Part shown: piece after piece, positions 345 to 64,000 of the stretch
Numbering within the stretch: the first letter of the stretch is position 1
Layout: the number at the start of each line of letters is the position of its first letter
Source: Candidatus Levyibacteriota bacterium
Lineage (GTDB): Bacteria > Patescibacteriota > Microgenomatia > Levybacterales > UBA12049
Assembly (NCBI GenBank): GCA_016186625.1
Contig: JACPLG010000008.1
Span: 80,689 to 144,688, forward strand
Reading direction: 5' to 3'
Length of the DNA: 64,000 bases
Notes under the pieces: model-generated
What the model was told of the DNA's origin: nothing
Database searches by the model: none
Seen by the model: the letters and a program-made list of their open reading frames with translations, nothing else
Program-made: the position numbers and the translations under genes

Positions 345-2411
345 TTATTTTACTCTTGCGTTAAACTTTGAGGAAATTGCACTGATTACTTGTTCTCTAA
401 TTTCTGAAACTTCTTTGCTTGTTAAATTTCTATCTTCAGCTTGATAAATAATGTGAAAAGTTCTGGCATTTTCAAACTGGTCCTTAAGCTTCACTTCTCT
501 TATCAAAAAACTCTGAAGAGATATCTCCTCAATAACATCTTGAGTTGAAACTGCCTCATCCAAAACAAAAGTAATATCCTCAAAAACTGCCGGAAATTTT
601 GCCAGAGGTTTGTAAACTTTTTTATTGGTTGCGTTTTTAAGCAAGATTTCAAAGTTAATTTCAAAATCTATGAGATTGCTATTTAGAATTTCAATATATC
701 CGACATTTTCGTTTTCAATTGAGATTTCTGCTCCTCCTTCTACTCTATTTTTAACTTTGTAATTTTTTATCTCCAAATCGTCAAATAGGGCTTCGATTAG
801 TCCTTTTACTTCAAAGAAAGAGACTCCCGTTTTTTTAATAAGTCCGGCAAGAGTTAACTTTTCTTTAGGCAGGTTTTGCCCTGAGCCGATTCGGTCTGAG
901 CGGGTTCGACGTCCTGAGCTCACCGTCGAAGGACTCACGGTCGAATGACTTGTCGAACGGGCTTTTTGACTTTTATGATAGGTATTGGCAAGTTCAAAGA
1001 TTTTGATAATTTCTTTTGCCTTATTGTTCTCAGCTACCTCGAGAAGGCTTGGAACAAGAGTATTTCGAAGATATACCATATCCGAAGTTAATGGATTTTT
1101 AAGCTTAATGGCATTATTAATTGGACCGTCAAATAAATCCTCAGAAACCAGGGAATATGTGTAAACCTCAGTGTATCCCCAGTATTTAAGTGCGCTTTTA
1201 ATTCTATCTTCCCAGTAGAAATTGTTGGCATATGGAATCGTTTTGTCACTTAAGAAAGATGGGATAATACTTGGTATCCTATGGTACCCATAAATTCTTG
1301 CTATTTCTTCAATGATGTCTTCTTCTATTTTTATATCATTAATCCGTTCTGATGGAACCTCAACCTTAAAAAAACCTAAATGAGCGCTGACTTTAAAACC
1401 AAGTTTTTGAAGAATTTCAGTTGCGATATTTGGATTTATCCCAACTCCAATTATCTTGTTAATCTTCTCAAGAGAAACCTTTACAGTTTGAGTTTTTGGT
1501 TTGTTAGGATAAACATCCAGGATTTTTGAGACAACTTTTCCCTGTGCAATTTGCTGATAAAGTTCAATTCCTCTTTTTAGCGCAAGTTCCATAAACTCCG
1601 GATCCACTCCCTTTTCGTTAACAATGGCCGCTTCAGTTCTAATTCCAAGACTCATTGAAGTTTGTCTGATACGATCGGGATTATTATTATCAAGAAAAAA
1701 TAGTATTCTTTTGGTTTTTTCATTAACAACAGAATTTGCTGTTCCCATAATTCCCAAAAGGTCGATTATTTCCCCTTCCCCATTGTCAGCAACTATATCT
1801 CCACCCAGTAATCGATACTCTTTCCCATCCAAAGTTGTAATAATTTCTCCTTTTTTTGACCCTCTTATTATCATCTCTTTAGTGTTTAATAAATCGTAGT
1901 CAAACACATGAGCGGGGTGGCCAATTTCGCGCATTACATAATTTGTGACATCAACCAGATTATTAAGACTTCTTATTCCGGAAAGTTCCAGACGATTGGC
2001 AATTTCTTTTGGGCTTTTGCCAATATTAACTTCCAAGACCACAGCCATAATTCTATTTACCAGTTTTGGGTCATTTTTGATTTCAATCGGGAAAGAAATA
2101 TCTCCTTCCGCAACTTTTGGTGTTTTTGGCGGAATGTATTTTGCCGCAATTCCATTCCCTGAAAGTGAAGCCGTTGCCTCTTTTGCAATTCCTGCAACAG
2201 ACATTAAATCCGGCCTGTTGGTTGTAACCTCGATATCATAAGTGTAATCATCTCCAGCTTTCCCGCCTGCAACGCCTGCGCTAGCATAGCGGGCAGGTTC
2301 TGTCTGCCCTACCGAAACAGAAGTCAGGGAAAGTTGCCGGGCAATTTCTGAGGCACTTGCTTTTGTTTCCAAAAATTCTCTTAACCAAGAGTCAACGATT
2401 TTTATTTGCAT
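345..2411 (-). CDS. pheT: Phenylalanine--tRNA ligase beta subunit
   Basis: 688 aa; N-terminal MQIKIVDSWLREFLE..., B3/B4 and B5-like regions, C-terminal FDX-ACB-like domain. Directly downstream of pheS on the same strand. ATG start at 2409-2411. Confidence 0.9.
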   Translation of the reverse strand: MQIKIVDSWLREFLETKASASEIARQLSLTSVSVGQTEPARYASAGVAGGKAGDDYTYDIEVTTNRPDLMSVAGIAKEATASLSGNGIAAKYIPPKTPKVAEGDISFPIEIKNDPKLVNRIMAVVLEVNIGKSPKEIANRLELSGIRSLNNLVDVTNYVMREIGHPAHVFDYDLLNTKEMIIRGSKKGEIITTLDGKEYRLLGGDIVADNGEGEIIDLLGIMGTANSVVNEKTKRILFFLDNNNPDRIRQTSMSLGIRTEAAIVNEKGVDPEFMELALKRGIELYQQIAQGKVVSKILDVYPNKPKTQTVKVSLEKINKIIGVGINPNIATEILQKLGFKVSAHLGFFKVEVPSERINDIKIEEDIIEEIARIYGYHRIPSIIPSFLSDKTIPYANNFYWEDRIKSALKYWGYTEVYTYSLVSEDLFDGPINNAIKLKNPLTSDMVYLRNTLVPSLLEVAENNKAKEIIKIFELANTYHKSQKARSTSHSTVSPSTVSSGRRTRSDRIGSGQNLPKEKLTLAGLIKKTGVSFFEVKGLIEALFDDLEIKNYKVKNRVEGGAEISIENENVGYIEILNSNLIDFEINFEILLKNATNKKVYKPLAKFPAVFEDITFVLDEAVSTQDVIEEISLQSFLIREVKLKDQFENARTFHIIYQAEDRNLTSKEVSEIREQVISAISSKFNARVK
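895..962. repeat. MITE-like TCGAA/CCTGAG-rich repeat inserted in-frame in pheT
   Basis: gttcgacgtcctgagctcaccgtcgaaggactcacggtcgaatgacttgtcgaacggg shares GTCGAATGACTTGTCGAA with the element at 32565-32596. Translated as the low-complexity peptide ARSTSHSTVSPSTVSSGRRTRSDRIGSGQ in a PheT linker. Confidence 0.45.
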
Positions 2412-9433: not shown

Positions 9434-9526
9434 AGGGTAAAGAAGAAATATACCGCTGTAACCCTATTCACTAAAATTATAATAGCAAACATCAAAATAA
9501 ATCGCAAGTGACTATCTTACACTTTA

Positions 9527-9551
9527 CCTTCCCACTTTCCATGTGGGAAGG
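9527..9551. repeat. REP-1 copy (CCTTCCCACTTTCCATGTGGGAAGG)
   Basis: Perfect hairpin palindrome; same family flanks RAYT at 31129-31776. Confidence 0.7.
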
Positions 9552-9558
9552 TAGATAC

Positions 9559-13277: not shown

Positions 13278-13317
13278 GCTTTAAGTTTAGCAGATTTTTA
13301 TCAGGCAATTCATTCGG

Positions 13318-13362
13318 TTTACACCCCGGGTGTGGATTTAAGTTTACACCCTAGGATTTGTG
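13318..13362. repeat. REP-2 copy (TTTACACCCCGGGTGTGGATTTAAGTTTACACCCTAGGA)
   Basis: Two-part repeat identical in structure to copies at 52316 and 52824. Confidence 0.65.
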
Positions 13363-13434: not shown

Positions 13435-13490
13435 ATTCAAAGTCGGGCAGGTGTCAATGCAACGCTCTAACCAACTGAGCTACAACTCTA
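13435..13490 (-). pseudogene. tRNA 5'-half fragment (acceptor + D-arm + anticodon-loop TTGACAC, no T-arm) abutting tRNA-Val
   Basis: AGAGTTGTAGCTCAGTTGGTTAGAGCGTTGCATTGACAC then no pairing partner and no GTTCGA box. Confidence 0.4.
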
Positions 13491-13543
13491 TAAAATAAAC
13501 GAGCCCGAAGGCCCGTTTATTTTAACAAAATAAGTTCATTGGA

Positions 13544-18653: not shown

Positions 18654-18677
18654 CCTTCCCACATGGAATGTGGGAAT
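18654..18677. repeat. REP-1 copy (CCTTCCCACATGGAATGTGGGAA)
   Basis: Palindromic hairpin of the REP-1 family. Confidence 0.65.
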
Positions 18678-19651: not shown

Positions 19652-19777
19652 TCGCCACATGGGACAAACCTCACGGTTTTTCCCAACCTGCCCGCTAATG
19701 CTGCGCATAAGCGTTGCAGGCGGGCGATTTCCCTTTAGGGACCACAAAATCAGCACTCCCAATCCAACGATTTTGTG
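19652..19777 (-). repeat. Conserved tRNA-upstream element (copy 3, with a ~37-nt hairpin insertion)
   Basis: Minus strand: CACAAAATCGTTGGATTGGGAGTGCTGATTTTGTG...CCTAAAGGGAAATCG[insertion]GTTGGGAAAAACCGTGAGGTTTGTCCCATG; matches 20942-21023 and 34643-34730. Confidence 0.5.
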
Positions 19778-20941: not shown

Positions 20942-21023
20942 GCGAAATCGTTGGATTGAGAGTGTCGATTTCGCTACCCCTAAAGGGAAATCGTTGGGAA
21001 AAACCGCGAGGTTTGTCCCATTT
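20942..21023 (+). repeat. Conserved tRNA-upstream element (copy 1): two hairpins directly 5' of tRNA-Phe
   Basis: GCGAAATCG-TTGGATTGAGAGTGT-CGATTTCGC ... GGGAAAAACCGCGAGGTTTGTCCC. Confidence 0.5.
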
Positions 21024-21096
21024 AGCCGAGTTAGCCAAGTTGGTCAAGGCATCCGCCTGAAGAGCGGACTATCTCAGTTCGATTCTGAGACTCGGC
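21024..21096 (+). tRNA. tRNA-Phe (anticodon GAA)
   Basis: GCCGAGTTAGCCAAGTTGGTCAAGGCATCCGCCTGAAGAGCGGACTATCTCAGTTCGATTCTGAGACTCGGCA. Confidence 0.8.
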
Positions 21097-22127: not shown

Positions 22128-22262
22128 TTTCAATGGGGTCGGATTTGGGATTTTGGGAAATCGAAACCACCCCCGAAACCACCCCGGGGGTGGAATTAGG
22201 TTTACACCCTAGGAATTTTCTATAGATTTTTCCTCAATGGGGTCGGATTTGGGGTTTTGGCG
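22128..22262. repeat. REP-2 copy (22176-22218) flanked by ~30-bp direct repeats CAATGGGGTCGGATTTGGGRTTTTGG
   Basis: The second direct repeat encodes the MFS C-terminus (QNPKSDPIEEKSIE); the first is a duplicate downstream of the stop codon. Confidence 0.5.
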
Positions 22263-29057: not shown

Positions 29058-30032
29058 TCACTTACTTTTTCCTAAAATCAAAGCAAGGAGTGCCATTCGG
29101 ATATACATACCGTTTCTAATTTCCGAGCGAAGGTACACCGCATTTGGATTTTTATCAACTTCCGGAAGTATTTCGCCAACGCGGGGCAAAGGGTGCATAA
29201 AAATCGTGTTTTTACCAGCCCTCTCTTTTATAAGTTTGTTATCAAGTACAAAGCGATTTTTTACCTTTTCATACGCGCTTTCGGACTTAAACCTTTCTTT
29301 TTGAACTCTTGTCCAATACCAAAAATCCGCATTTTTTGGAATATCTTTCTCCGATTCAATTTCTACCAACTCTAGCTTCCCACTTTCCATGTGGGAACTC
29401 AGATCTTCCCTGCTTAATCGAAGCTCTTTTGGGGAAAGAAGATAAAGTTTATTACCATTGAACTTTGAGAGACCCCGGATTAATGAATGGATTGTTCTTC
29501 CATTTAACATATCTCCTGCCAAAACTCCTATTAAATTATCTAGTTTTTTTGTTCGCTCATAAATTGTATAAAGGTCAAGCAAAGCTTGTGTGGGGTGTTC
29601 TCCGATTCCGTCACCTGCATTGATAACAGGAACAAACCCAGCTGCCTGGGCTGCCTTAAGCGTCGCTCCTTTCTTTGGATGCCTGAGGACAATTACATCA
29701 CAGTAAGCCTCAAAAACCCTGATCGTATCCTCAAGACTTTCCCCCTTTGAAACCGATGAAAAATGTTCTGGATCAAGAATTTCAACAGTTGAGCCTCCAA
29801 GTTGTTTTACTGCTGCGACAAATGATCCGAAGGTTCTACTTGACGGTTCATAAAAAATAAGGGTAACAATGTTACCCTTAAGAAGATCCGAAGGTCTTGC
29901 GTTTTTGGCAATTAGAAGCATGCCCACGGTTTTCTTAAAAAGAATAGATATGTCCTTAGGGGAAAATTGATCCAGAGAAATAATATCTTTACCTTTGTAT
30001 TTACCATTTATGGGCTCAATCGGACTGACCAT
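29058..30032 (-). CDS. pyrB: Aspartate carbamoyltransferase catalytic subunit
   Basis: FYEPSSRTFGSF (STRTR-type motif), MHPLPRVGEI (HPLPR, ATCase-type rather than OTCase HCLP); adjacent to carAB. Confidence 0.8.
   Translation of the reverse strand: MVSPIEPINGKYKGKDIISLDQFSPKDISILFKKTVGMLLIAKNARPSDLLKGNIVTLIFYEPSSRTFGSFVAAVKQLGGSTVEILDPEHFSSVSKGESLEDTIRVFEAYCDVIVLRHPKKGATLKAAQAAGFVPVINAGDGIGEHPTQALLDLYTIYERTKKLDNLIGVLAGDMLNGRTIHSLIRGLSKFNGNKLYLLSPKELRLSREDLSSHMESGKLELVEIESEKDIPKNADFWYWTRVQKERFKSESAYEKVKNRFVLDNKLIKERAGKNTIFMHPLPRVGEILPEVDKNPNAVYLRSEIRNGMYIRMALLALILGKSK
29376..29397. repeat. REP-1 copy lying in-frame inside pyrB (encodes ...SSHMESGK...)
   Basis: CTTCCCACTTTCCATGTGGGAA within the pyrB ORF. 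Confidence 0.6.
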
Positions 30033-31093: not shown

Positions 31094-31097
31094 TGTA

Positions 31098-31120
31098 CCT
31101 TCCCACATGGAAAGTGGGAA
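31098..31120. repeat. REP-1 copy flanking RAYT-1
   Basis: CCTTCCCACATGGAAAGTGGGAA. Confidence 0.7.
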
Positions 31121-31128
31121 CACAGAAT

Positions 31129-31776
31129 TCAGTCATCGATGTCGATTAGAGAATCAAAAAGCGCCGGGTCAATATCATTAGTTTCCTCGACAAAACTTTG
31201 ATAGTCTCTTTCTGGATTCGATCGCGCAAAATAAGAAAGAATAAAACCTGTATCACAAAAAACATGTTTTTCCCCATAAATATAGTTACAATAAGACGAA
31301 TATGGGTAAACTCTACATTCACACATGGAAAGTGGGAAAGGGTTTCGGTGAATATATTTTGACAGTTGCAGAAGATGCCCATCGCTTTCAATATACTTTG
31401 CTTTAAAACTTCCTTGAAACAGTGGTCCTACTCTATCGTACTTAGTATTGAAATACCTTGTATAACTGTCTGATAATTTTCTTAGAAAGTGTGTAATGCC
31501 ATTATCGGTTAATTGTTTGACTAGGAGATGAAAATGGTTAGGCATCAAGCAAAAACAAAAAATACTTACTAGTTCTGTTTGGCTGTCTACTTTCTTAAGT
31601 TTAACGATTCCCCTTCTGTAGTCAGATAGTTTCATGGGCTGAGGAGATTTTCGATAAAAGTCCAGAGTTTCTAAAAATCTAAGATAGTCCCACCTATCCA
31701 AAAAGATATCTCTTTTTTCCACACCTCTATTATAAATGTGGAAGAATCCGTCGGTGATAAAAGGAGGATTCTTCAT
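31129..31776 (-). CDS. REP-associated tyrosine transposase (RAYT; IS200/IS605 TnpA-like HUH Y1 transposase), family 1
   Basis: HIYNRGV, MPNHFHLLV (HUH), YIHRNP (catalytic Tyr); flanked by REP-1 copies on both sides. Confidence 0.8.
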   Translation of the reverse strand: MKNPPFITDGFFHIYNRGVEKRDIFLDRWDYLRFLETLDFYRKSPQPMKLSDYRRGIVKLKKVDSQTELVSIFCFCLMPNHFHLLVKQLTDNGITHFLRKLSDSYTRYFNTKYDRVGPLFQGSFKAKYIESDGHLLQLSKYIHRNPFPLSMCECRVYPYSSYCNYIYGEKHVFCDTGFILSYFARSNPERDYQSFVEETNDIDPALFDSLIDIDD

Positions 31777-31806
31777 AAGCGTAATATATTAATTTAACCA
31801 TAAGTA

Positions 31807-31831
31807 CCTTCCCACATGTCAAGTGGGAAGG
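31807..31831. repeat. REP-1 copy flanking RAYT-1
   Basis: CCTTCCCACATGTCAAGTGGGAAGG. Confidence 0.7.
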
Positions 31832-31896
31832 TAAACTTTCCCTCTGGAGCTTGGGTTTGATATGCGCTTCTTATCCTTGTATAATATTAGCTACGC

Positions 31897-31981: not shown

Positions 31982-32015
31982 GGGGACTAGCTCAGTTGAA
32001 GTAGCGACTAATTTT
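31982..32015 (+). pseudogene. tRNA 5'-fragment (acceptor + D-arm only)
   Basis: GGGGACTAGCTCAGTTGAAGTAGCGACTAATTTTC then intact tRNA-Pro begins. Confidence 0.3.
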
Positions 32016-32099: not shown

Positions 32100-32411
32100 T
32101 TAAGGTTGGCCTTCTTCGAGATATGGGACGGGAATATCAGTTTCTAGTGCCCTATTTGATAATGCTACTTCTATGGCTCCAATTTGCTCATCAGTTGGAT
32201 CAGGTATGTCTCTCTTTGCAGCAATTGTTGCTGTGCTCCATCTTACATCAGCATGAAACCTTCGATCAATTTCAGCAACAAAACTTGGGTCAGGACCATC
32301 TAATTCTTCCGTTGTGTGGGATTGCTCATTTAGCCCAGGTCCATTAACTACTCGTGGAATAAAGGGAATCGGTCCTAAAAATGCCTCGTGTCTTGAAGAA
32401 CTATTTGCCAT
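32100..32411 (-). CDS. Hypothetical acidic protein
   Basis: 103 aa; GC-richer; weak RBS; no motif. Confidence 0.3.
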   Translation of the reverse strand: MANSSSRHEAFLGPIPFIPRVVNGPGLNEQSHTTEELDGPDPSFVAEIDRRFHADVRWSTATIAAKRDIPDPTDEQIGAIEVALSNRALETDIPVPYLEEGQP

Positions 32412-32466
32412 AATTAATCCGCAATATAAATCATCTATAGCTATAAGTCAAGAAAGCAGAATCTGA

Positions 32467-32598
32467 GCGGGTGAAGGGAATCCCATTCGACTTCGCTCAG
32501 GGTAAACTTCTCATCCCTTCACGCTGGATTCCACCAGCCCACCGCGAATGGTGAGCAATTCGTCATGAGCTCATTGTCGAATGACTTGTCGAATCCAG
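32467..32598. repeat. MITE-like element at the tRNA-Gly 3' end, bounded by a partial duplicate of the tRNA 3' end (GAGCGGGTGAAGGGAATCCC)
   Basis: Intact tRNA 3' AGAGCGGGTGAAGGGAATCGAACCC at 32598-32621 and partial copy at 32467-32488; between them ATTCGAC...GTCGAATGACTTGTCGAA. Confidence 0.5.
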
Positions 32599-32669
32599 AG
32601 CGGGTGAAGGGAATCGAACCCTCGTATCCACTTTGGAAAAGTGGTGTTCTGCCATTGAACTACACCCGC
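32599..32669 (-). tRNA. tRNA-Gly (anticodon TCC)
   Basis: GCGGGTGTAGTTCAATGGCAGAACACCACTTTTCCAAAGTGGATACGAGGGTTCGATTCCCTTCACCCGCT. Confidence 0.8.
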
Positions 32670-32862
32670 GCGCGAAGCGTGGGACGAAACCAAGGGTTTC
32701 TTCCCAACGATCTTCCTTTAAGGATGCACGAGGCCGGTAAAATCATCAAGCGAGCGGCCCTGACGTGCAATATCTAGCGTTTTGCGTAATCTTAATTCTA
32801 TCAAACTTGAGTGGTTATATTCAATTATTTCACGGCGCGGAGGACGAAAGCGCGGTTGATTA

Positions 32863-33534
32863 TTATTCTTTTGGAGTTGGAGTTACGGATGAGAGATCGC
32901 TTCCTACAATAACTAATACTTCCCCATCTTCTCCAGTGGCAAATTTTTCAATCTTACCAACCGGCCCTCTTTCTTCAAGAACTTTTGTGAGTTCTTCTAT
33001 AAATTCTTCCGCAACGTCACTATTTACAGTTATAATTGTTTCCGTATAGTTTGAATTGTCGGCATTCCCTACGGTAGAAACTACAAATCCAGCACCTTCA
33101 AGAAGCTCTTTTACCCGTGCTCCCTCTCCGGCTATGCCGCTGCCGTTTTGCACTTCAATTTCATAAGCTTTCCTGTCTACATCTACTTTCGTTGGGGTTG
33201 GTGAAGTTTGCGGTAGTTTGATTGACTTTTCAGGCTTATCACTTAAAAAGCTGGGATTGAAGTTCTGGCTGAAAAAAAGAAAACCCCCAAACATCAAAAA
33301 TCCTACGGGAACGACAACCAGTATTATTAAAAGGATTTTTTTCCAGCTGATTCCTCCCGAGCTCTCAATTTCATCGAGGCTGTCTGCGGTTTCCTCAGGC
33401 TTAACCTCAGCCGGAGCCTGGTCTGTGGTCTTATCATCACCGGCTTTTTCTTCGTTTTCTTCCACCTCAATAGTAACTTTTGCTTCCGGTATTTCAGTTA
33501 CTTTTTTTATTCTTTTAGGTTTTTTCTCGGCCAT
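32863..33534 (-). CDS. LytR_C-domain membrane protein
   Basis: Acidic N-terminus, one TM, EIEVQNGSGIAGEGARVKELLEGAGF...TETIITVNSD (LytR C-terminal domain pattern). Confidence 0.5.
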   Translation of the reverse strand: MAEKKPKRIKKVTEIPEAKVTIEVEENEEKAGDDKTTDQAPAEVKPEETADSLDEIESSGGISWKKILLIILVVVPVGFLMFGGFLFFSQNFNPSFLSDKPEKSIKLPQTSPTPTKVDVDRKAYEIEVQNGSGIAGEGARVKELLEGAGFVVSTVGNADNSNYTETIITVNSDVAEEFIEELTKVLEERGPVGKIEKFATGEDGEVLVIVGSDLSSVTPTPKE

Positions 33535-33585
33535 TTAAAATCCGCCTACTTATATAGTAAATATACTTTGTAGCAAATGTCAAAC

Positions 33586-34566
33586 TTATTTAAATGAGCG
33601 GATGGTTATTATTGCGGCGGAGACAAACGGAATTGAGAGAAGAGCGCCCATTACCCCAAATAATCTTGCCCCAATTAAAATTGCAACAATTATTACAACA
33701 GGATTAAGTCCTACTGCTTTTTGCATTATTTTGGGTACCAGAATATTATTTTCCGCAAGCTGAATGCCAATGTAGGCCAAAACCACAGAAACAGCCATAA
33801 CGGGCGAGATTGCAAGGCCAACTATTACAGCTGGAATTGCGGCAATTATCGGTCCAAGTGTTGGAATAATTTCCAGTATTCCTGCCAAAATTGCCAGGGG
33901 AAGCGCAAAGGGAACTCCAAGAACAGTTAGGACAATCCAGGTAATTGTCCCAACCACTAAAGATAATACAATCTGACCCCTAAGCCATGCTCCGAGCTTT
34001 TGTTCCACCAGATGAATTGTCAGAATTATCTTTTGCCTATATCTCTCCGGTAAGAGATTTGGAATTTCCCTTCCAATTTTCTCCCGCTCAATCAGCATAT
34101 AAAAACTTAAAACAAATATTGAAATAACAGTAAATATTCCTCCAAAAAACCGTGTTGTAAAAGACAGAGCATTTTGTCCAATCAGGCCTGTTAATGGTGA
34201 TAAATAGTTTTCTATCTGAGCATTACTAACCTGAAATCCTAAGACTTGGCTAGCCAAATTTAGATACGTTGGGATTGCCTTAAATAATGCCTGGATTTGG
34301 GAAATGAAAAAAGGAAGGATCGGGACTACCAAAAGAACAATTGCGGCTATTACAAGGCTATATACAACAGTTACTGTAAGAAAGTTTGGAAGTCTAAAGC
34401 GTTTCAGGCCGCGAACAATAGGAGTTAGTGCTGCCATTATAATGTAGGAGATGAAAAGCGCAAGAAGGATACTTCTTATCTGGTAAAGAAAAAGGGCAAG
34501 AGCTACCAGGAGAACTGTAGCTAAGATATGGTTATTGAGTACGTATTTAACTATAGGATTTTGCAC
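33586..34566 (-). CDS. AI-2E family transporter (PerM/UPF0118)
   Basis: 326 aa, 8 TM segments, family-typical topology and loop motifs. Confidence 0.55.
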   Translation of the reverse strand: MQNPIVKYVLNNHILATVLLVALALFLYQIRSILLALFISYIIMAALTPIVRGLKRFRLPNFLTVTVVYSLVIAAIVLLVVPILPFFISQIQALFKAIPTYLNLASQVLGFQVSNAQIENYLSPLTGLIGQNALSFTTRFFGGIFTVISIFVLSFYMLIEREKIGREIPNLLPERYRQKIILTIHLVEQKLGAWLRGQIVLSLVVGTITWIVLTVLGVPFALPLAILAGILEIIPTLGPIIAAIPAVIVGLAISPVMAVSVVLAYIGIQLAENNILVPKIMQKAVGLNPVVIIVAILIGARLFGVMGALLSIPFVSAAIITIRSFK

Positions 34567-34642
34567 TGCTTCAATTATAGCATATTTTGTTTGATTTTGA
34601 GCGGATTTCGAGGTAAAATAGTATGGTAACCTTTTAGATTAA

Positions 34643-34730
34643 CGCAAAATCGCTGGATTGGGAGTGTCGGTTTTGCGAATCAATAAAGGGAAAATCGTTG
34701 GGAAAAAACCGTTAGGTTTTGTCCCATTTA
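34643..34730 (+). repeat. Conserved tRNA-upstream element (copy 2)
   Basis: CGCAAAATCG-CTGGATTGGGAGTGT-CGGTTTTGCG ... GGGAAAAAACCGTTAGGTTTTGTCCC; stem changes relative to copy 1 are compensatory. Confidence 0.5.
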
Positions 34731-34772
34731 GGCCCTGTAGCTCAACGGATAGACCTGCCCGCTAAGCAGCAT
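34731..34772 (+). pseudogene. tRNA 5'-fragment (acceptor + D-arm + degenerate anticodon arm)
   Basis: GGCCCTGTAGCTCAACGGATAGACCTGCCCGCTAAGCAGCATG; no T-arm. Confidence 0.35.
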
Positions 34773-34845
34773 GCGCCCGTAGCTCAACGGATAGAGCAAG
34801 ACGGTTCTAACGTCAAGGTTGGGGGTTCGATTCCCTCCGGGCGTG
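34773..34845 (+). tRNA. tRNA-Arg (anticodon TCT)
   Basis: GCGCCCGTAGCTCAACGGATAGAGCAAGACGGTTCTAACGTCAAGGTTGGGGGTTCGATTCCCTCCGGGCGTG. Confidence 0.75.
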
Positions 34846-34855
34846 CAAGTATGGT

Positions 34856-34911
34856 AGGCAGGGCGAGTGCGTTCTAAGCACCAGGTTGGGGGTTCGATTC
34901 CCTGCCTGCCG
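34856..34911 (+). pseudogene. D-arm-less partial tRNA-Arg(TCT) copy
   Basis: GGCAGGG-CGAGTGCGTTCTAAGCAC-CAGGTTGGGGGTTCGATTCCCTGCCTGCC; same anticodon loop GTTCTAA as the neighbouring tRNA. Confidence 0.4.
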
Positions 34912-35072
34912 GCAGGCAGGCCTCCGGGGTCGCACTTCGGCATCAGTCCGGCAAACTCATGACAAGAGCTCAGTGCAAGCTGAGTTTGACGAAGCGACCT
35001 GAGGGATGAGAAGTTTACCCTGAGTACTTCGGTTTACTCAGCATAAACGAAGTCGAAGGGATTCCCTCCAGG
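34912..35072. repeat. MITE-like repeat with partial tRNA 3' duplicate (GATTCCCTCCAGGGTC)
   Basis: cgaagtcgaagggattccctccagggtc; CCTGAG and TCGAA motifs as in the other copies. Confidence 0.35.
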
Positions 35073-35073
35073 G

Positions 35074-35541
35074 TCACAGATGTCTTCCCCTGAGGTAAGC
35101 TTCGGCAGCCTCTCTCATTGAGTGTTCAGGGAATTCTCCTGTACGATTATGCGCAAACCGTTGATAAATACTGCCACGTAAAAGCTCGAGTTTTTCGGTT
35201 GTTAAAAATCTGAAGTCATTTGCTAAAGCAAATCCCTCTCCAACAACTTCTATTACTTTTTCCATAGGTACATCGTGAGACGCCCGAACATTATCTGGAT
35301 GAATTCTATCAGCCACAGATTTAATTGCTTGCAGCTTTGATTGATCTTCCAATAAAGCTTCTCGTAACTCTAAAGGATTTTCACCAGTTTCTCTGACTAT
35401 AAGGGCTATAACTGCTCCTTGCGCAGTAACGGAAGCAGGACAAGCCATGCTAGCTCTAATGAAATAAAAATAGGCTATTTCCGCCATACTCCTTGGGAAG
35501 CCTTCACTCATGTCAGTTTGCGCAGTTTCAGCTGTACTCAC
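35074..35541 (-). CDS. Hypothetical protein
   Basis: 155 aa, GC-richer; no motif. Confidence 0.35.
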   Translation of the reverse strand: MSTAETAQTDMSEGFPRSMAEIAYFYFIRASMACPASVTAQGAVIALIVRETGENPLELREALLEDQSKLQAIKSVADRIHPDNVRASHDVPMEKVIEVVGEGFALANDFRFLTTEKLELLRGSIYQRFAHNRTGEFPEHSMREAAEAYLRGRHL

Positions 35542-37847: not shown

Positions 37848-37903
37848 TTTACACCTTTACACCCCGGGTGTGGATTTACCTTGACACCCCAGGGATTTAG
37901 ATT
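37848..37903. repeat. REP-2 copy flanking RAYT-2
   Basis: CTTTACACCTTTACACCCCGGGTGTGGATTTACCTTGACACCCCAGGGA. Confidence 0.65.
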
Positions 37904-38587: not shown

Positions 38588-38630
38588 AATATCCTAGGGT
38601 GTAAACCTAAATTCACCCCCGGGGTGTATG
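38588..38630. repeat. REP-2 copy (inverted orientation) flanking RAYT-2
   Basis: CTAGGGTGTAAACCTAAATTCACCCCCGGGGTGTA. Confidence 0.65.
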
Positions 38631-39363: not shown

Positions 39364-39392
39364 CCTCAGAAGATGATATAATTAGCAAGAGT

Positions 39393-39467
39393 GGTGGATG
39401 TAGCTCAGTGGTAGAGCTCCTGGTTGTGGTCCAGGTGGCCGCGGGTTCGATCCCCGTCATCCACCCA
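39393..39467 (+). tRNA. tRNA-His (anticodon GTG) with G(-1)
   Basis: gGTGGATGTAGCTCAGTGGTAGAGCTCCTGGTTGTGGTCCAGGTGGCCGCGGGTTCGATCCCCGTCATCCACCCA. Confidence 0.8.
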
Positions 39468-39898
39468 TTCGACTCACTTCGTTCGCTCATGGCTGTAAGC
39501 CGGAGTCGAATGTCCTGAGTTCATCGAAGGACAAAATGTCTTTTTTCATTTACATTCTCCGTAGCTCATCCAATCAACTATATATTGGACAAACGAATAA
39601 TTTTGAAAATCGGACAAAGCAACATATTGCAAAAGATTGTAAAGCAGCGAAATTTACTAAAGATCATGAAGACTTCAAGCCCGTTTATAAAGAGGAGTAC
39701 CCTACAAGATTAGAAGCAATGAGAAGAGAAGCACAGATTAAAAAATGGTCAAGAGCAAAAAAAGAAGCGCTTATTGCAGGAAATTTGAAAGAACTTAAAA
39801 ATTTAAGCAAAAAGAAATAGTAAGTGAGATCATCGAGCCTGAGCCTGAGGTTCACTTCAGAGTCGAAGACCTGTCGAACCATCCCCGTCATCCACCCA
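39468..39898 (+). mobile_element. Minimal tRNA-integrated cassette: GIY-YIG nuclease gene bounded by a 16-bp direct repeat of the tRNA-His 3' end and ATTCGAC.../...GTCGAACC termini
   Basis: CCCCGTCATCCACCCA at 39453-39468 and again at 39883-39898; left end ATTCGACTCACTTCGTTCGCTCA, right end GAGTCGAAGACCTGTCGAACCAT. Confidence 0.55.
39536..39820 (+). CDS. GIY-YIG nuclease-domain protein (UPF0213/YhbQ-like)
   Basis: FFIYILRSSSNQLYIGQTNNFENRTKQH matches the GIY-YIG core. Confidence 0.7.
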   Translation: MSFFIYILRSSSNQLYIGQTNNFENRTKQHIAKDCKAAKFTKDHEDFKPVYKEEYPTRLEAMRREAQIKKWSRAKKEALIAGNLKELKNLSKKK

Positions 39899-40068
39899 AA
39901 TTAAATGCGCTCGGACTCACAAATGCAGTTTGGCTTGCTATAACAGGCAAATCATATCTTTTTCATCTTCACTTTTTCTGATTTGATTGGAAACTTTCTG
40001 AATGTATGCAAATGGAGTTCGGATATCTATGGTGAGCTTTTCCATACTTATACCTAGCAAGACGTAGC

Positions 40069-52177: not shown

Positions 52178-52315
52178 AACTTTATTATAGACTTATTTAA
52201 CAAGAAAAGTTGGAGGAAAAAGTATGTCAGGGGTAATTATAGCAGAAGATACCATATTTTAAGAACAAGAAAATCCTTAAGATTACATCCAAGCGTAAAT
52301 TCAAGCTTACACAGT

Positions 52316-52358
52316 TTACACCCCGGGGGTGGATTTAGCTTTACACCCCAGGATTTAA
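52316..52358. repeat. REP-2 copy upstream of C39-like gene
   Basis: TTTACACCCCGGGGGTGGATTTAGCTTTACACCCCAGGA. Confidence 0.65.
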
Positions 52359-52806: not shown

Positions 52807-52823
52807 AATTTCCGCTCCTAGGT

Positions 52824-52866
52824 TTACACCCCGGGTGTGGATTTAGCTTTACACCCCAGGAGTTTG
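52824..52866. repeat. REP-2 copy downstream of C39-like gene
   Basis: TTTACACCCCGGGTGTGGATTTAGCTTTACACCCCAGGA. Confidence 0.65.
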
Positions 52867-58216: not shown

Positions 58217-58239
58217 CTTCCCACATGGAAAGTGGGAAG
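58217..58239. repeat. REP-1 copy
   Basis: CTTCCCACATGGAAAGTGGGAAG perfect palindrome. Confidence 0.7.
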
Positions 58240-58253
58240 CAAGTTCTTATTAT

Positions 58254-63396: not shown

Positions 63397-63438
63397 TGCA
63401 CCCGTAGCTCAATGGATAGAGCACATCGCTTCGGATCA
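63397..63438 (+). pseudogene. tRNA-Arg(TCG) 5'-fragment (acceptor + D-arm + anticodon loop CTTCGGA, no T-arm)
   Basis: GCACCCGTAGCTCAATGGATAGAGCACATCGCTTCGGATCAC; no matching 3' half downstream. Confidence 0.4.
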
Positions 63439-63478
63439 CAAATTGATTTCAAAGCACAAATAACTTATAATTTGAGCT

Positions 63479-63916
63479 ATGAAGAGATGTAGTAGGTGTA
63501 AAAAAGAAAAGTCTATTGAAGATTTTAATTTTAAAAATAGAGCTAAGCAGACTCGGCAATATCAGTGCAAAGATTGCAGCCGAATATATATAAGGTCACA
63601 TTATGAAAGAAACAAGAAGTACTATCTTTTAAAAGCAAAGCTCAGAAATGAAGCAAACAGAAAGGAAATCAAAGCATATATATGGAATTTTCTCAATAGT
63701 AATCCATGCGTAGACTGTGGGGAGAAAGATCCGATAGTTTTAGAATTCGATCACTTATCGGACAAGATAGCAGATATCTCCGCAATGTACAGAAATTATA
63801 ATTTGCAAAAAGTTAAAAGTGAAATTGAAAAGTGTCAGGTCAGATGCGCAAATTGTCATAGAAGAAAAACGGCAAATGAGCAGGGATGGAATAAAAATTT
63901 TGCCTCTGTAGCTTAA
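63479..63916 (+). CDS. HNH endonuclease with N-terminal CxxC...CxxC zinc finger
   Basis: CVDCGEKDPIVLEFDHLSDK...CQVRCANCHRRKT (HNH). The 3' end overlaps the tRNA-Arg 5' end by ~15 nt. Confidence 0.7.
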   Translation: MKRCSRCKKEKSIEDFNFKNRAKQTRQYQCKDCSRIYIRSHYERNKKYYLLKAKLRNEANRKEIKAYIWNFLNSNPCVDCGEKDPIVLEFDHLSDKIADISAMYRNYNLQKVKSEIEKCQVRCANCHRRKTANEQGWNKNFASVA

Positions 63917-63973
63917 CGGATAAAGCGCTGGTCTTCGGAACCAGTAATGCGGGTTCGATTCCTGCCAGGGGCG
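63902..63973 (+). tRNA. tRNA-Arg (anticodon TCG)
   Basis: GCCTCTGTAGCTTAACGGATAAAGCGCTGGTCTTCGGAACCAGTAATGCGGGTTCGATTCCTGCCAGGGGCG. Confidence 0.75.
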
Positions 63974-64000
63974 CAACGTATTGCTGCAAGGTAGCACGTT

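Follow-up and report, generated by a model that had tools for sequence, protein, structure and literature searches.

What is the short non-coding segment that separates the tRNA-Gly(TCC) gene from a second, partial copy of that gene's own 3' end in a Levybacteria genome, and how did it come to be there? The locus lies in a 64 kb stretch of DNA, hereafter the window (64,000 nt of contig JACPLG010000008.1, Candidatus Levyibacteriota bacterium assembly GCA_016186625.1), for which a preliminary description had proposed a non-autonomous element resembling a miniature inverted-repeat transposable element (MITE), aimed at tRNA genes and mobilised in trans. The 115-nt segment, here termed the Gly element, is an insertion. 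We consider it probable that it is a non-autonomous member, lacking an open reading frame (ORF), of a family of small elements linked to GIY-YIG nucleases and inserting at tRNA 3' ends, a judgement that includes the mechanism set out below. Best supported within this explanation is the view of these elements as small and selfish, inserting immediately downstream of a tRNA gene and duplicating 15-24 nt of it, so that the tRNA survives.

The direct repeat, GAGCGGGTGAAGGGAATC, occurs exactly twice on the plus strand of the window, at a spacing of 133 nt, and a search allowing up to three mismatches still returned just these two matches; at least two matches arose in 0 of 100 shuffles. The partial repetition of the tRNA 3' end some 130 bp away, noted earlier, is thus an exact 18-mer pair, and the feature is real, although its repeat begins at 32465, two nucleotides before the start originally given (32467). 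One copy is the reverse complement of the final 18 nt called for tRNA-Gly(TCC), and the repeat holds the T-loop GATT, the 3' strands of the T-stem and acceptor stem, the discriminator and one further base. Because this segment from the T-loop to the 3' end has been duplicated, the tRNA gene remains intact, and its Rfam score is the highest of any tRNA in the window (coordinates of all features are given in Table 1).

Syntenic contigs were reached via homologues of the neighbouring AI-2E transporter, and both empty and filled tRNA-Gly sites were found among them, as expected of an insertion; when the repeat and 5 nt of its flank were used to scan metagenomes, only unrelated tRNA-Gly genes came back. 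In L086/87, where the AI-2E protein is 74% identical, a near-identical tRNA-Gly is followed directly by unrelated sequence, within the same gene order as in the window (AI-2E, LytR_C, tRNA-Gly, small ORF, tRNA-Leu, tRNA-Pro) and with promoter-like sequence also in common. The tRNA-Gly 3' end is likewise empty in L088/89, L093 and L096 and at the second tRNA-Gly of L094. A homologous element occupies the same position in L090/91 (AI-2E 72% identical), L094 (68%) and L095 (65%), the second repeats of the last two being slightly decayed. Apart from lacking 29 nt (32557-32585), the L090 copy differs from that of the window by three substitutions in 86 shared nucleotides (~96% identity), compared with 72% identity for the neighbouring AI-2E protein, a contrast that may reflect either recent spread or constraint. 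In L092 (AI-2E 87%) the same tRNA end is filled by an unrelated 136-nt inverted-repeat element with a 14-nt repeat, which makes this end an insertion hot spot shared by elements of different types. That element, in the closest relative found, lies at 1821-1974, its termini reading TGTCTTTCG.../...CGAAAGACGA and its imperfect repeat GAGCGcGTGAAGGG. Chance or low-complexity resemblance, the outcome that would have undone the preliminary description, has a negligible probability: all that speaks for it is that some shared words, among them an 11-mer in common with pheT, are short, whereas the shuffles did not yield the repeat and the filled and empty sites of other genomes are homologous, with further copies that have defined ends.

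The Gly element has a G+C content of 51%, against 39% for the window, and the ORF listing contains no credible ORF within its 115 nt, the overlapping ORFs being spurious only. On the plus strand it starts CC-ATTCGAC and finishes GTCGAATGACTTGTCGAATCCA, in agreement with the ATTCGAC and GTCGAAT termini reported for it before. Along with these inverted termini, a 10-nt inverted repeat (TGGATTCGAC / GTGGAATCCA) and 27-nt arms at 70% were found. As in its relatives, the left terminus adjoins the tRNA 3' end and the right terminus adjoins the second repeat copy. The left terminal core pairs, as a 10-nt inverted repeat, with 32525-32534, the 29-nt hairpin unit absent from L090 sits nested inside the left terminus, and the right end contains a 23-nt exact match to the Arg element described below (35002-35024). 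The opposite orientation was considered and rejected: the Gly and Arg elements had been read as inverted relative to the tRNA because plus-strand CCATTCGACTTCGCTCAGGG resembles the canonical left end, a reading ruled out by the copies in L088, L090, L094 and L095 and by the alignment with the gene-carrying element of L061, both termini being the same core in inverted form.

Could the segment instead be a functional structured RNA co-transcribed with the tRNA, either a 3' trailer of tRNA-Gly or a small RNA, that might regulate tRNA processing or downstream cargo, the pairings seen then being RNA helices? No terminator was found in the element or between it and tRNA-Gly; the tRNA is preceded by a conserved promoter-like site, cargo genes in related elements are always co-directional with the tRNA, and helices covary. 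However, Rfam 15, which includes self-cleaving ribozymes and group I introns, matched only tRNAs at threshold in the window, permissive scans of 32300-35300 and 39380-39920 yielded no credible match, and folding energy was just marginally better than that of shuffles (z -1.7 and -1.2). Moreover, presence and absence vary among close relatives with identical tRNA, the same units also occur inside a coding gene, and covariation cannot tell RNA from single-stranded DNA (ssDNA). We regard a dedicated RNA as a very improbable explanation, although an RNA trailer is compatible with mobility as a possible added layer. Ribozyme or intron identity was rejected: neither a comparison by eye of the conserved left module with hammerhead, hepatitis delta virus (HDV)-like, hatchet, hairpin and group I cores nor Rfam at gathering and permissive thresholds gave a match.

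Related elements occur at other tRNA genes. At tRNA-His, the segment from the T-loop to the tRNA end, ATCCCCGTCATCCACCCA, forms an 18-nt repeat around a GIY-YIG ORF, so that the parallel drawn earlier between the two loci holds, the Gly case being the one that carries no gene. Downstream of an old, now disrupted tRNA-Arg(TCT) lies a non-coding Arg element, which has a clean counterpart in L088 (108 nt, with a 19-nt repeat), and L095 harbours a Leu-type element at tRNA-Leu(TAA) with a 17-nt repeat. The termini of the His element recur at tRNA-His in L096 around a different, 75-aa ORF (15-nt repeat), and other GIY-YIG subfamilies were found at tRNA-His in L086 and tRNA-Arg in L094, with repeats of 16 and 22 nt, respectively. 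At the Gly, Arg, Leu, His and Asn tRNAs, the repeats span 15-24 nt, from a first base in or at the T-arm, which in most cases falls inside the T-loop, to the 3' end of the tRNA; the family thus targets the T-loop and acceptor region, as had been supposed. A shorter repeat of 12 nt follows a Gln tRNA. The T-arm sequence GGGTTCGAT(T/C)CCC is common to the three invaded tRNAs of the window, and among the other ten only tRNA-Arg(TCG), the site of an HNH cassette, begins its T-arm alike (GGGTTCGATTCC). All gene-less Levybacteria copies have one orientation relative to the tRNA.

The same hairpin units form a 63-nt in-frame insert in pheT, amounting to about 21 extra codons that solved PheT homologues do not have, and its shared 18-mer with the Gly element, already pointed out in the preliminary description, is GTCGAATGACTTGTCGAA at 940-957. 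In-frame palindromic inserts are known in Rickettsia. All nine plus-strand GTCGAA hexamers of the window fall at the Gly, Arg or His elements or in this insert. The insert starts with TCTGAGCGGGT (895-905), which equals 32462-32472, that is, 3 nt of flank and the first 8 nt of the displaced tRNA-Gly repeat; it looks copied from the Gly site together with part of the repeat, a match that could partly be chance.

Duplication of a tRNA end in fixed orientation is also what a miniature integrative element or island remnant would leave behind if it had been inserted by a tyrosine integrase encoded elsewhere, the 18-nt repeat then being the attL/attR identity block. A block from the T-loop to the tRNA 3' end is the one expected for a T-loop crossover, for which a survey of tRNA integration sites by Williams in 2002 is said to be the source, and the orientation to the tRNA is fixed in all copies. 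Yet no full-size member encodes an integrase, their 400-500 nt holding just a GIY-YIG or other small ORF, and the same termini are found at no fewer than seven tRNA species whose repeats differ in sequence, although a single core sequence is the norm for an integrase. Hairpin units of this kind, moreover, lie in frame in pheT and nested in the Gly element. An integrase origin is, on balance, quite unlikely.

The gene that shares its termini with the gene-less elements encodes a GIY-YIG nuclease rather than a recognised transposase. The ORF of the His element specifies 94 aa that match PF01541 (E 2e-19 over residues 3-76), and the catalytic-type residues Y6, Y16, R26 and E65 are invariant among 25 homologues. 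Hairpins flank the gene on both sides (upstream GTCC-TGAGTTCATCGAA-GGAC; downstream ...CTGAGG..GAGTCGAAG..GTCGAACC). It is the only homologue of its kind in the window, and the His element is the candidate source of a nuclease acting in trans.

A nuclease profile scan of species-representative genomes yielded 80 loci that span many phyla (Patescibacteria, Bacteroidota, Armatimonadota, Elusimicrobia and Binatia, with some labelled delta- and gamma-proteobacteria). In 21 of the 80, a same-strand tRNA (Gln, Asn or Ala) ends no more than 600 nt upstream of the ORF, compared with about 1.1 expected; no tRNA was found downstream, and two lay on the opposite strand. The tRNA is followed by the conserved start (A)TTCGAC, and many further loci keep just a tRNA-like 3' end before (A)TTCGAC. 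Downstream repeats of the tRNA end measure 24 nt in L017, 18 in L026, 18 in L061 and 16 in L040, and the right end in L061 can be aligned to the right halves of the Gly and Arg elements. Since termini and right ends are common to gene-less and cargo-bearing elements, the former look like internal-deletion derivatives of the latter, the classical MITE relationship. The description of the Gly element as MITE-like and non-autonomous is borne out by its size, lack of an ORF, inverted termini, direct repeat and these shared ends.

Element and flank have changed in concert. The left module consists of TTCGACTC, an optional hairpin, TCGCTCA, 5-9 variable nucleotides, (TATAGCC), GAGTCGAA and a hairpin unit, GTCC-TGAGCGA..GAGTCGAA-GGAC, directly before the start codon. 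The variable stretch that follows GCTCA reverse-complements the flank directly before TTCGAC: a perfect 5-nt complement was found in 16 of 43 loci (mean 4.1 and maximum 10 in 5000 permutations), with six compensating pairs (AGCCA/TGGCT, AGCCG/CGGCT, AGCAG/CTGCT, AGCTG/CAGCT, AGTGG/CCACT and GCGGAGCCC/GGGCTCCGC), and complementarity reaches 9 nt in L061 and L082. Hairpin units, which lie upstream of 58 of the 80 nuclease homologues, combine a variable, covarying stem with a conserved YGAGC...GTCGAR loop; their stems are fully paired in 34 of 58, against a permutation mean of 11.9 and maximum of 19. Viewed on the other strand, the left terminus together with its flank is another hairpin unit whose outer stem strand is the tRNA end, so that the hairpins at both ends of the element consist partly of target DNA.

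In the gene-less copies the order, in tRNA sense, is tRNA, TTCGRC-AAG-CTCA, a hairpin (X), a segment termed T', GAGAAGT, the hairpin CC-TGAGCGA..GTCGAA-GG, and the repeat. Hairpin X shows compensatory change across genomes (G-C, G.T, A-T). The sequence of T', which reverse-complements the beginning of the neighbouring repeat, depends on the target, reading GACCTGAGGGA / GGACTGAGAGGGA at Arg and GCGATGAGGAC at Leu (see Table 1 for Gly); scores are block-diagonal, each of the three being best against its own target. Because T' keeps the Watson-Crick complement where the tRNA has G.U, it is an inverted copy made at the DNA level. The same exact complementarity at G.U positions rules out T' as leftover tRNA 5' strands.

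The resulting arrangement, T-X-T'-Y-T, in which direct copies of the tRNA end enclose an inverted one, could conceivably have arisen with no dedicated mobility, as an inverted triplication produced by local replication errors (fold-back priming or template switching) at a hairpin-prone tRNA gene end, with the hairpin units carried along. T' is indeed the exact complement of the 3' strand and not of the wobble-containing 5' strands of the tRNA, it directly follows the 3' arm of hairpin X as fold-back synthesis predicts, and tRNA genes are visibly rearranged in these genomes (orientation flips and fragments). Nonetheless, X and Y recur at three tRNAs and in genomes that are 65-74% identical in the neighbouring protein, with near-identical cores that include the 23-nt exact match, and the termini are common with gene-carrying elements across phyla. 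We judge replication error alone to be distinctly improbable.

We therefore return to the favoured explanation, an ORF-less member of a GIY-YIG-linked family, and to how such elements may move. A full-size member comprises the (A)TTCGAC left module, one small cargo gene, usually for a single-domain GIY-YIG nuclease of about 94 aa of the Ssn/UPF0213 type, a short right end and a second copy of 15-24 nt of the tRNA end; the Gly element retains just the left terminus and the right end. Internal segments complement the adjoining target, and ssDNA ends can accordingly fold into hairpins whose stem is partly target DNA. The GIY-YIG protein from the His copy, 6.9 kb away, may recognise such ssDNA hairpins and nick nearby, as Ssn does, and we infer that mobilisation in trans, proposed in the preliminary description, would proceed through this protein. 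Host repair or replication (fill-in, fold-back or template switching) would then complete the insertion and in so doing may give rise to the 18-nt direct repeat as well as to T', the inverted copy. The polarity of T-X-T'-Y-T would fit fold-back of a nascent strand on hairpin X with copying of the tRNA end, and would equally fit later quasi-palindrome correction. Given co-directional cargo and the lack of an intervening terminator, the elements probably ride on tRNA transcription.

Several points weigh against this explanation. GIY-YIG proteins are hydrolytic nucleases and are not known to act as transposases, so that host functions have to account for insertion; the best solved relatives of the 94-aa protein belong to UPF0213 (1zg2, E 3e-10, and 1ywl), and we know of no activity for it. 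No excised or circular form was seen, and just one GIY-YIG gene of this type lies within the window. The SRM motif published for Ssn repeats has 0 matches in the window and, in 361 kb of the 80 homologous loci, 5 matches versus 3 in shuffles, just 1 of them near the gene. T' is confined to the GAGAAGT subfamily (Gly, Arg and Leu) and absent from the His element and most coding relatives, a search in the His element, L017, L026, L040 and L061 having returned nothing significant, and it could have arisen after insertion via quasi-palindrome correction.

A bolder possibility, which we hold to be rather unlikely, is that target choice may be guided by base pairing and be re-programmable. The family would then represent a minimal form of transposition into tRNA gene ends, guided by DNA and driven by a nuclease. 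Pairing with a single-stranded target, through the 5-9 nt that follow GCTCA in the left module or the 11-13 nt of T' in the gene-less form, would form the hairpin for the 94-aa nuclease, and the tRNA invaded would be set by that pairing.

How does the family compare with known systems? Bacterial MITEs and palindromic elements, for example Correia elements and Rickettsia palindromic elements, are similarly small and non-coding, with inverted termini, direct repeats, presence/absence polymorphism, occasional in-frame insertion and termini in common with a coding relative. However, the coding relative here carries a GIY-YIG nuclease only and no recognised transposase, a specific tRNA segment of 17-19 nt is duplicated rather than a generic target of 2-10 bp, and the element contains an inverted copy of its target. 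Genomic islands that tyrosine integrases have placed in tRNA genes, and their integrase-less derivatives, the cis-mobilizable elements (CIMEs), likewise duplicate a block from the T-loop to the 3' end, leave the tRNA intact and have a fixed orientation, but here there is no integrase, the elements measure 0.1-0.5 kb and the same ends occur at many tRNAs. A GIY-YIG element in Allomyces atp6, reportedly described by Paquin et al. in 1994 as a free-standing homing endonuclease gene that brings a replacement 3' end, also combines a GIY-YIG gene near a gene's 3' end with a duplicated 3' segment and preserved function; it differs from the present elements in that these have a bacterial tRNA target, non-coding derivatives, conserved hairpin termini and identical rather than foreign copies.

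The closest resemblance is to Ssn, single-domain GIY-YIG nucleases of 94 aa whose genes have NTS/SRM hairpin repeats on either side (Chenal et al., Nat Commun 2025; PMC11893778). Ssn binds its hairpin solely as ssDNA, cleaves a few nucleotides upstream and also accepts a hairpin formed jointly by two strands; the arrangement of the gene between repeats recalls an insertion sequence, Rickettsia is among the repeat-rich genera, and the natural role outside Neisseria "remain[s] to be elucidated" according to the authors (PMC11893778). The present family shares the protein size and domain, the hairpin repeats on both sides and elsewhere in the genome, and a defined hairpin orientation, but its hairpins have a variable stem and a conserved YGAGC...GTCGAR loop, and its elements lie at tRNA 3' ends with a 15-24 nt duplication and target-complementary segments. 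The Ssn paper contains no mention of tRNA and describes neither the targeting of tRNA ends nor the long duplication nor segments complementary to a target (PMC11893778). By analogy, the system may work like Ssn and its repeats, and its protein may belong to the Ssn subfamily (cd10448, GIY-YIG_unchar_3, in the CDD). Hairpin elements of the IS200/IS605 and repetitive extragenic palindrome (REP)/REP-associated tyrosine transposase (RAYT) types, which are discussed in the same paper (PMC11893778), are alike in their subterminal hairpins, in internal sequence that pairs with flank or target (the IS608 guide) and in strand and orientation specificity. In contrast to IS200/IS605, the protein here is a GIY-YIG nuclease and not an HUH Y1 transposase, and there is a long direct repeat where IS200/IS605 make none. 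No description of an association of GIY-YIG hairpin elements with tRNA ends was found in full-text literature searches, the Ssn paper (PMC11893778) being the sole relevant match, and the family is widespread and apparently undescribed. Beyond what the preliminary description had noticed, the analysis adds this wider association with GIY-YIG genes, the internal target-complementary segments and the nested 29-nt hairpin unit.

Table 1. Coordinates of the Gly element, its sister elements and other repeats in the window.
Feature	Position	Strand	Remarks
Target gene tRNA-Gly(TCC), intact	32598-32669	minus	ARAGORN; Rfam 71.7 bits; near-identical in syntenic relatives
Direct repeat copy 1	32598-32615	minus	tRNA 3' part, tRNA sense GATTCCCTTCACCCGCTC, from T-loop to 1 base beyond the discriminator
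Direct repeat copy 2	32465-32482	minus	displaced or duplicated 3' part of tRNA-Gly
Gly element, non-coding, 115 nt	32483-32597	minus	missing from empty sites of relatives, present at filled ones
Left terminal core	32586-32597	minus	tRNA sense TGGATTCGACAA...; homologous to the (A)TTCGAC start of GIY-YIG elements
Nested hairpin unit, 29 nt	32557-32585	plus	AATTC-GTCA-TGAGCTCATTGTCGAA-TGAC; like the pheT-insert unit; absent from L090 copy
T' (internal inverted copy of target 3' end)	32514-32524	minus	tRNA sense GCGTGAAGGGA, complementary to TCCCTTCA-CCCGC of the repeat
Right end	32483-32513	minus	GAGAAGTTTA motif and terminal hairpin core CCC-TGAGCGAAGTCGAAT-GGG
tRNA-His element with cargo	39468-39880	plus	413 nt between the 18-nt repeats at 39450-39467 and 39881-39898
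His element, left module	39468-39535	plus	
His element, 94-aa GIY-YIG ORF	39536-39820	plus	
His element, right end	39821-39880	plus	
Arg element, non-coding	34934-35059	plus	downstream of old, now disrupted tRNA-Arg(TCT); displaced 3' copy 35060-35078
pheT in-frame insert, 63 nt	895-957	plus (ORF on minus)	same hairpin units; 18-mer in common with Gly element
AATCGTTGGGAAAAACCGYGAGGTTTGTCCCAT motif sites	20992-21024, 34696-34730, 32670-32709, 19659-19687	minus for 32670-32709	
RAYT palindrome, flanking copies	31096-31120, 31805-31835		
RAYT palindrome, other copies	9523-9553, 18654-18676, 29375-29397, 58217-58240		
GTTTACACCCCGGGTGTGGATTTAGSTTTACACCCYAGGA repeat copies	297-327, 13316-13359, 22180-22214, 37856-37893, 38591-38628, 52314-52356, 52821-52861		

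The Arg sites show further changes. The old tRNA-Arg(TCT) of the window (34731-34933) is of the same type as those of L086 and L088, and its D-arm is split by a cassette bounded by CCTGCC...GGCAGG that holds an intact new tRNA-Arg(TCT) gene (34773-34846); a further insertion, in its T-stem/acceptor region, is a 20-nt palindrome, CCTGCCTGCCGGCAGGCAGG. In L090, an orphan Arg-type element (1104-1215, minus strand) has a 19-nt repeat with just 9 nt of tRNA opposite and no tRNA gene, while the functional tRNA-Arg(TCT), 5.6 kb away, is an empty site. Changes of strand of tRNA-Gly and tRNA-Arg relative to their neighbours among these genomes suggest that the repeats promote rearrangement.

Other tRNA loci of the window contain relics of a different kind. 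At 63398-63974, a tRNA-Arg(TCG) 5' half (GCACCCGTAGCTCAATGGATAGAGCACATCGCTTCGGA), cut off just past the anticodon, precedes an ORF of 145 aa that has an HNH-like C-terminus and no Pfam match, and directly behind this ORF lies a complete tRNA-Arg(TCG) that differs in sequence; the whole looks like an endonuclease cassette bringing its own replacement tRNA. A tRNA-Val 5' half that ends in the anticodon loop and continues as CCTGCCCG... (13435-13494) lies just upstream of an intact tRNA-Val, and a tRNA-Pro 5' fragment (CGGGGACTAGCTCAGTTGAAGTAGCG; 31982-32015) just upstream of an intact tRNA-Pro of different sequence; both are further relics of tRNA replacement.

Separate repeat families were also noted. 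An ORF at 31129-31776, similar to IS200-like/REP-associated tyrosine transposases, has the palindrome TTCCCAC(N)CATGTGGGAAGG on both sides (TTCCCACNTNNNCATGTGGGAAGG), with at least six further copies in the window, and represents a REP/RAYT-type system unrelated to the GTCGAA elements. A third repeat family, GTTTACACCCCGGGTGTGGATTTAGSTTTACACCCYAGGA, is about 40 nt long and present seven times, in most cases at the end of a gene. The motif AATCGTTGGGAAAAACCGYGAGGTTTGTCCCAT lies directly upstream of the tRNA genes for Phe, Arg-TCT, Gly-TCC and Leu-GAG and occurs also in L090 and L092; in the window it belongs to about 110 nt between the promoter-like site of tRNA-Gly and the tRNA that L086 does not have.

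If the favoured explanation is true, a nuclease gene of 94 codons, among the smallest known, would be central to widespread bacterial mobile elements that have neither transposase nor integrase. Such elements would settle at tRNA ends without harming the tRNA and would give rise to copies without a gene and, within essential genes such as pheT, to in-frame inserts, and selfish spread at tRNA genes would provide a concrete context for single-strand nucleases of the Ssn type. The covariation of element and target raises the possibility of base-pair-guided target choice, which is of interest for ssDNA tools. For annotation, tRNA fragments and odd peptide inserts in these genomes call for caution, and the activity of such elements would help to explain the heavy rearrangement of tRNA loci in these reduced genomes.

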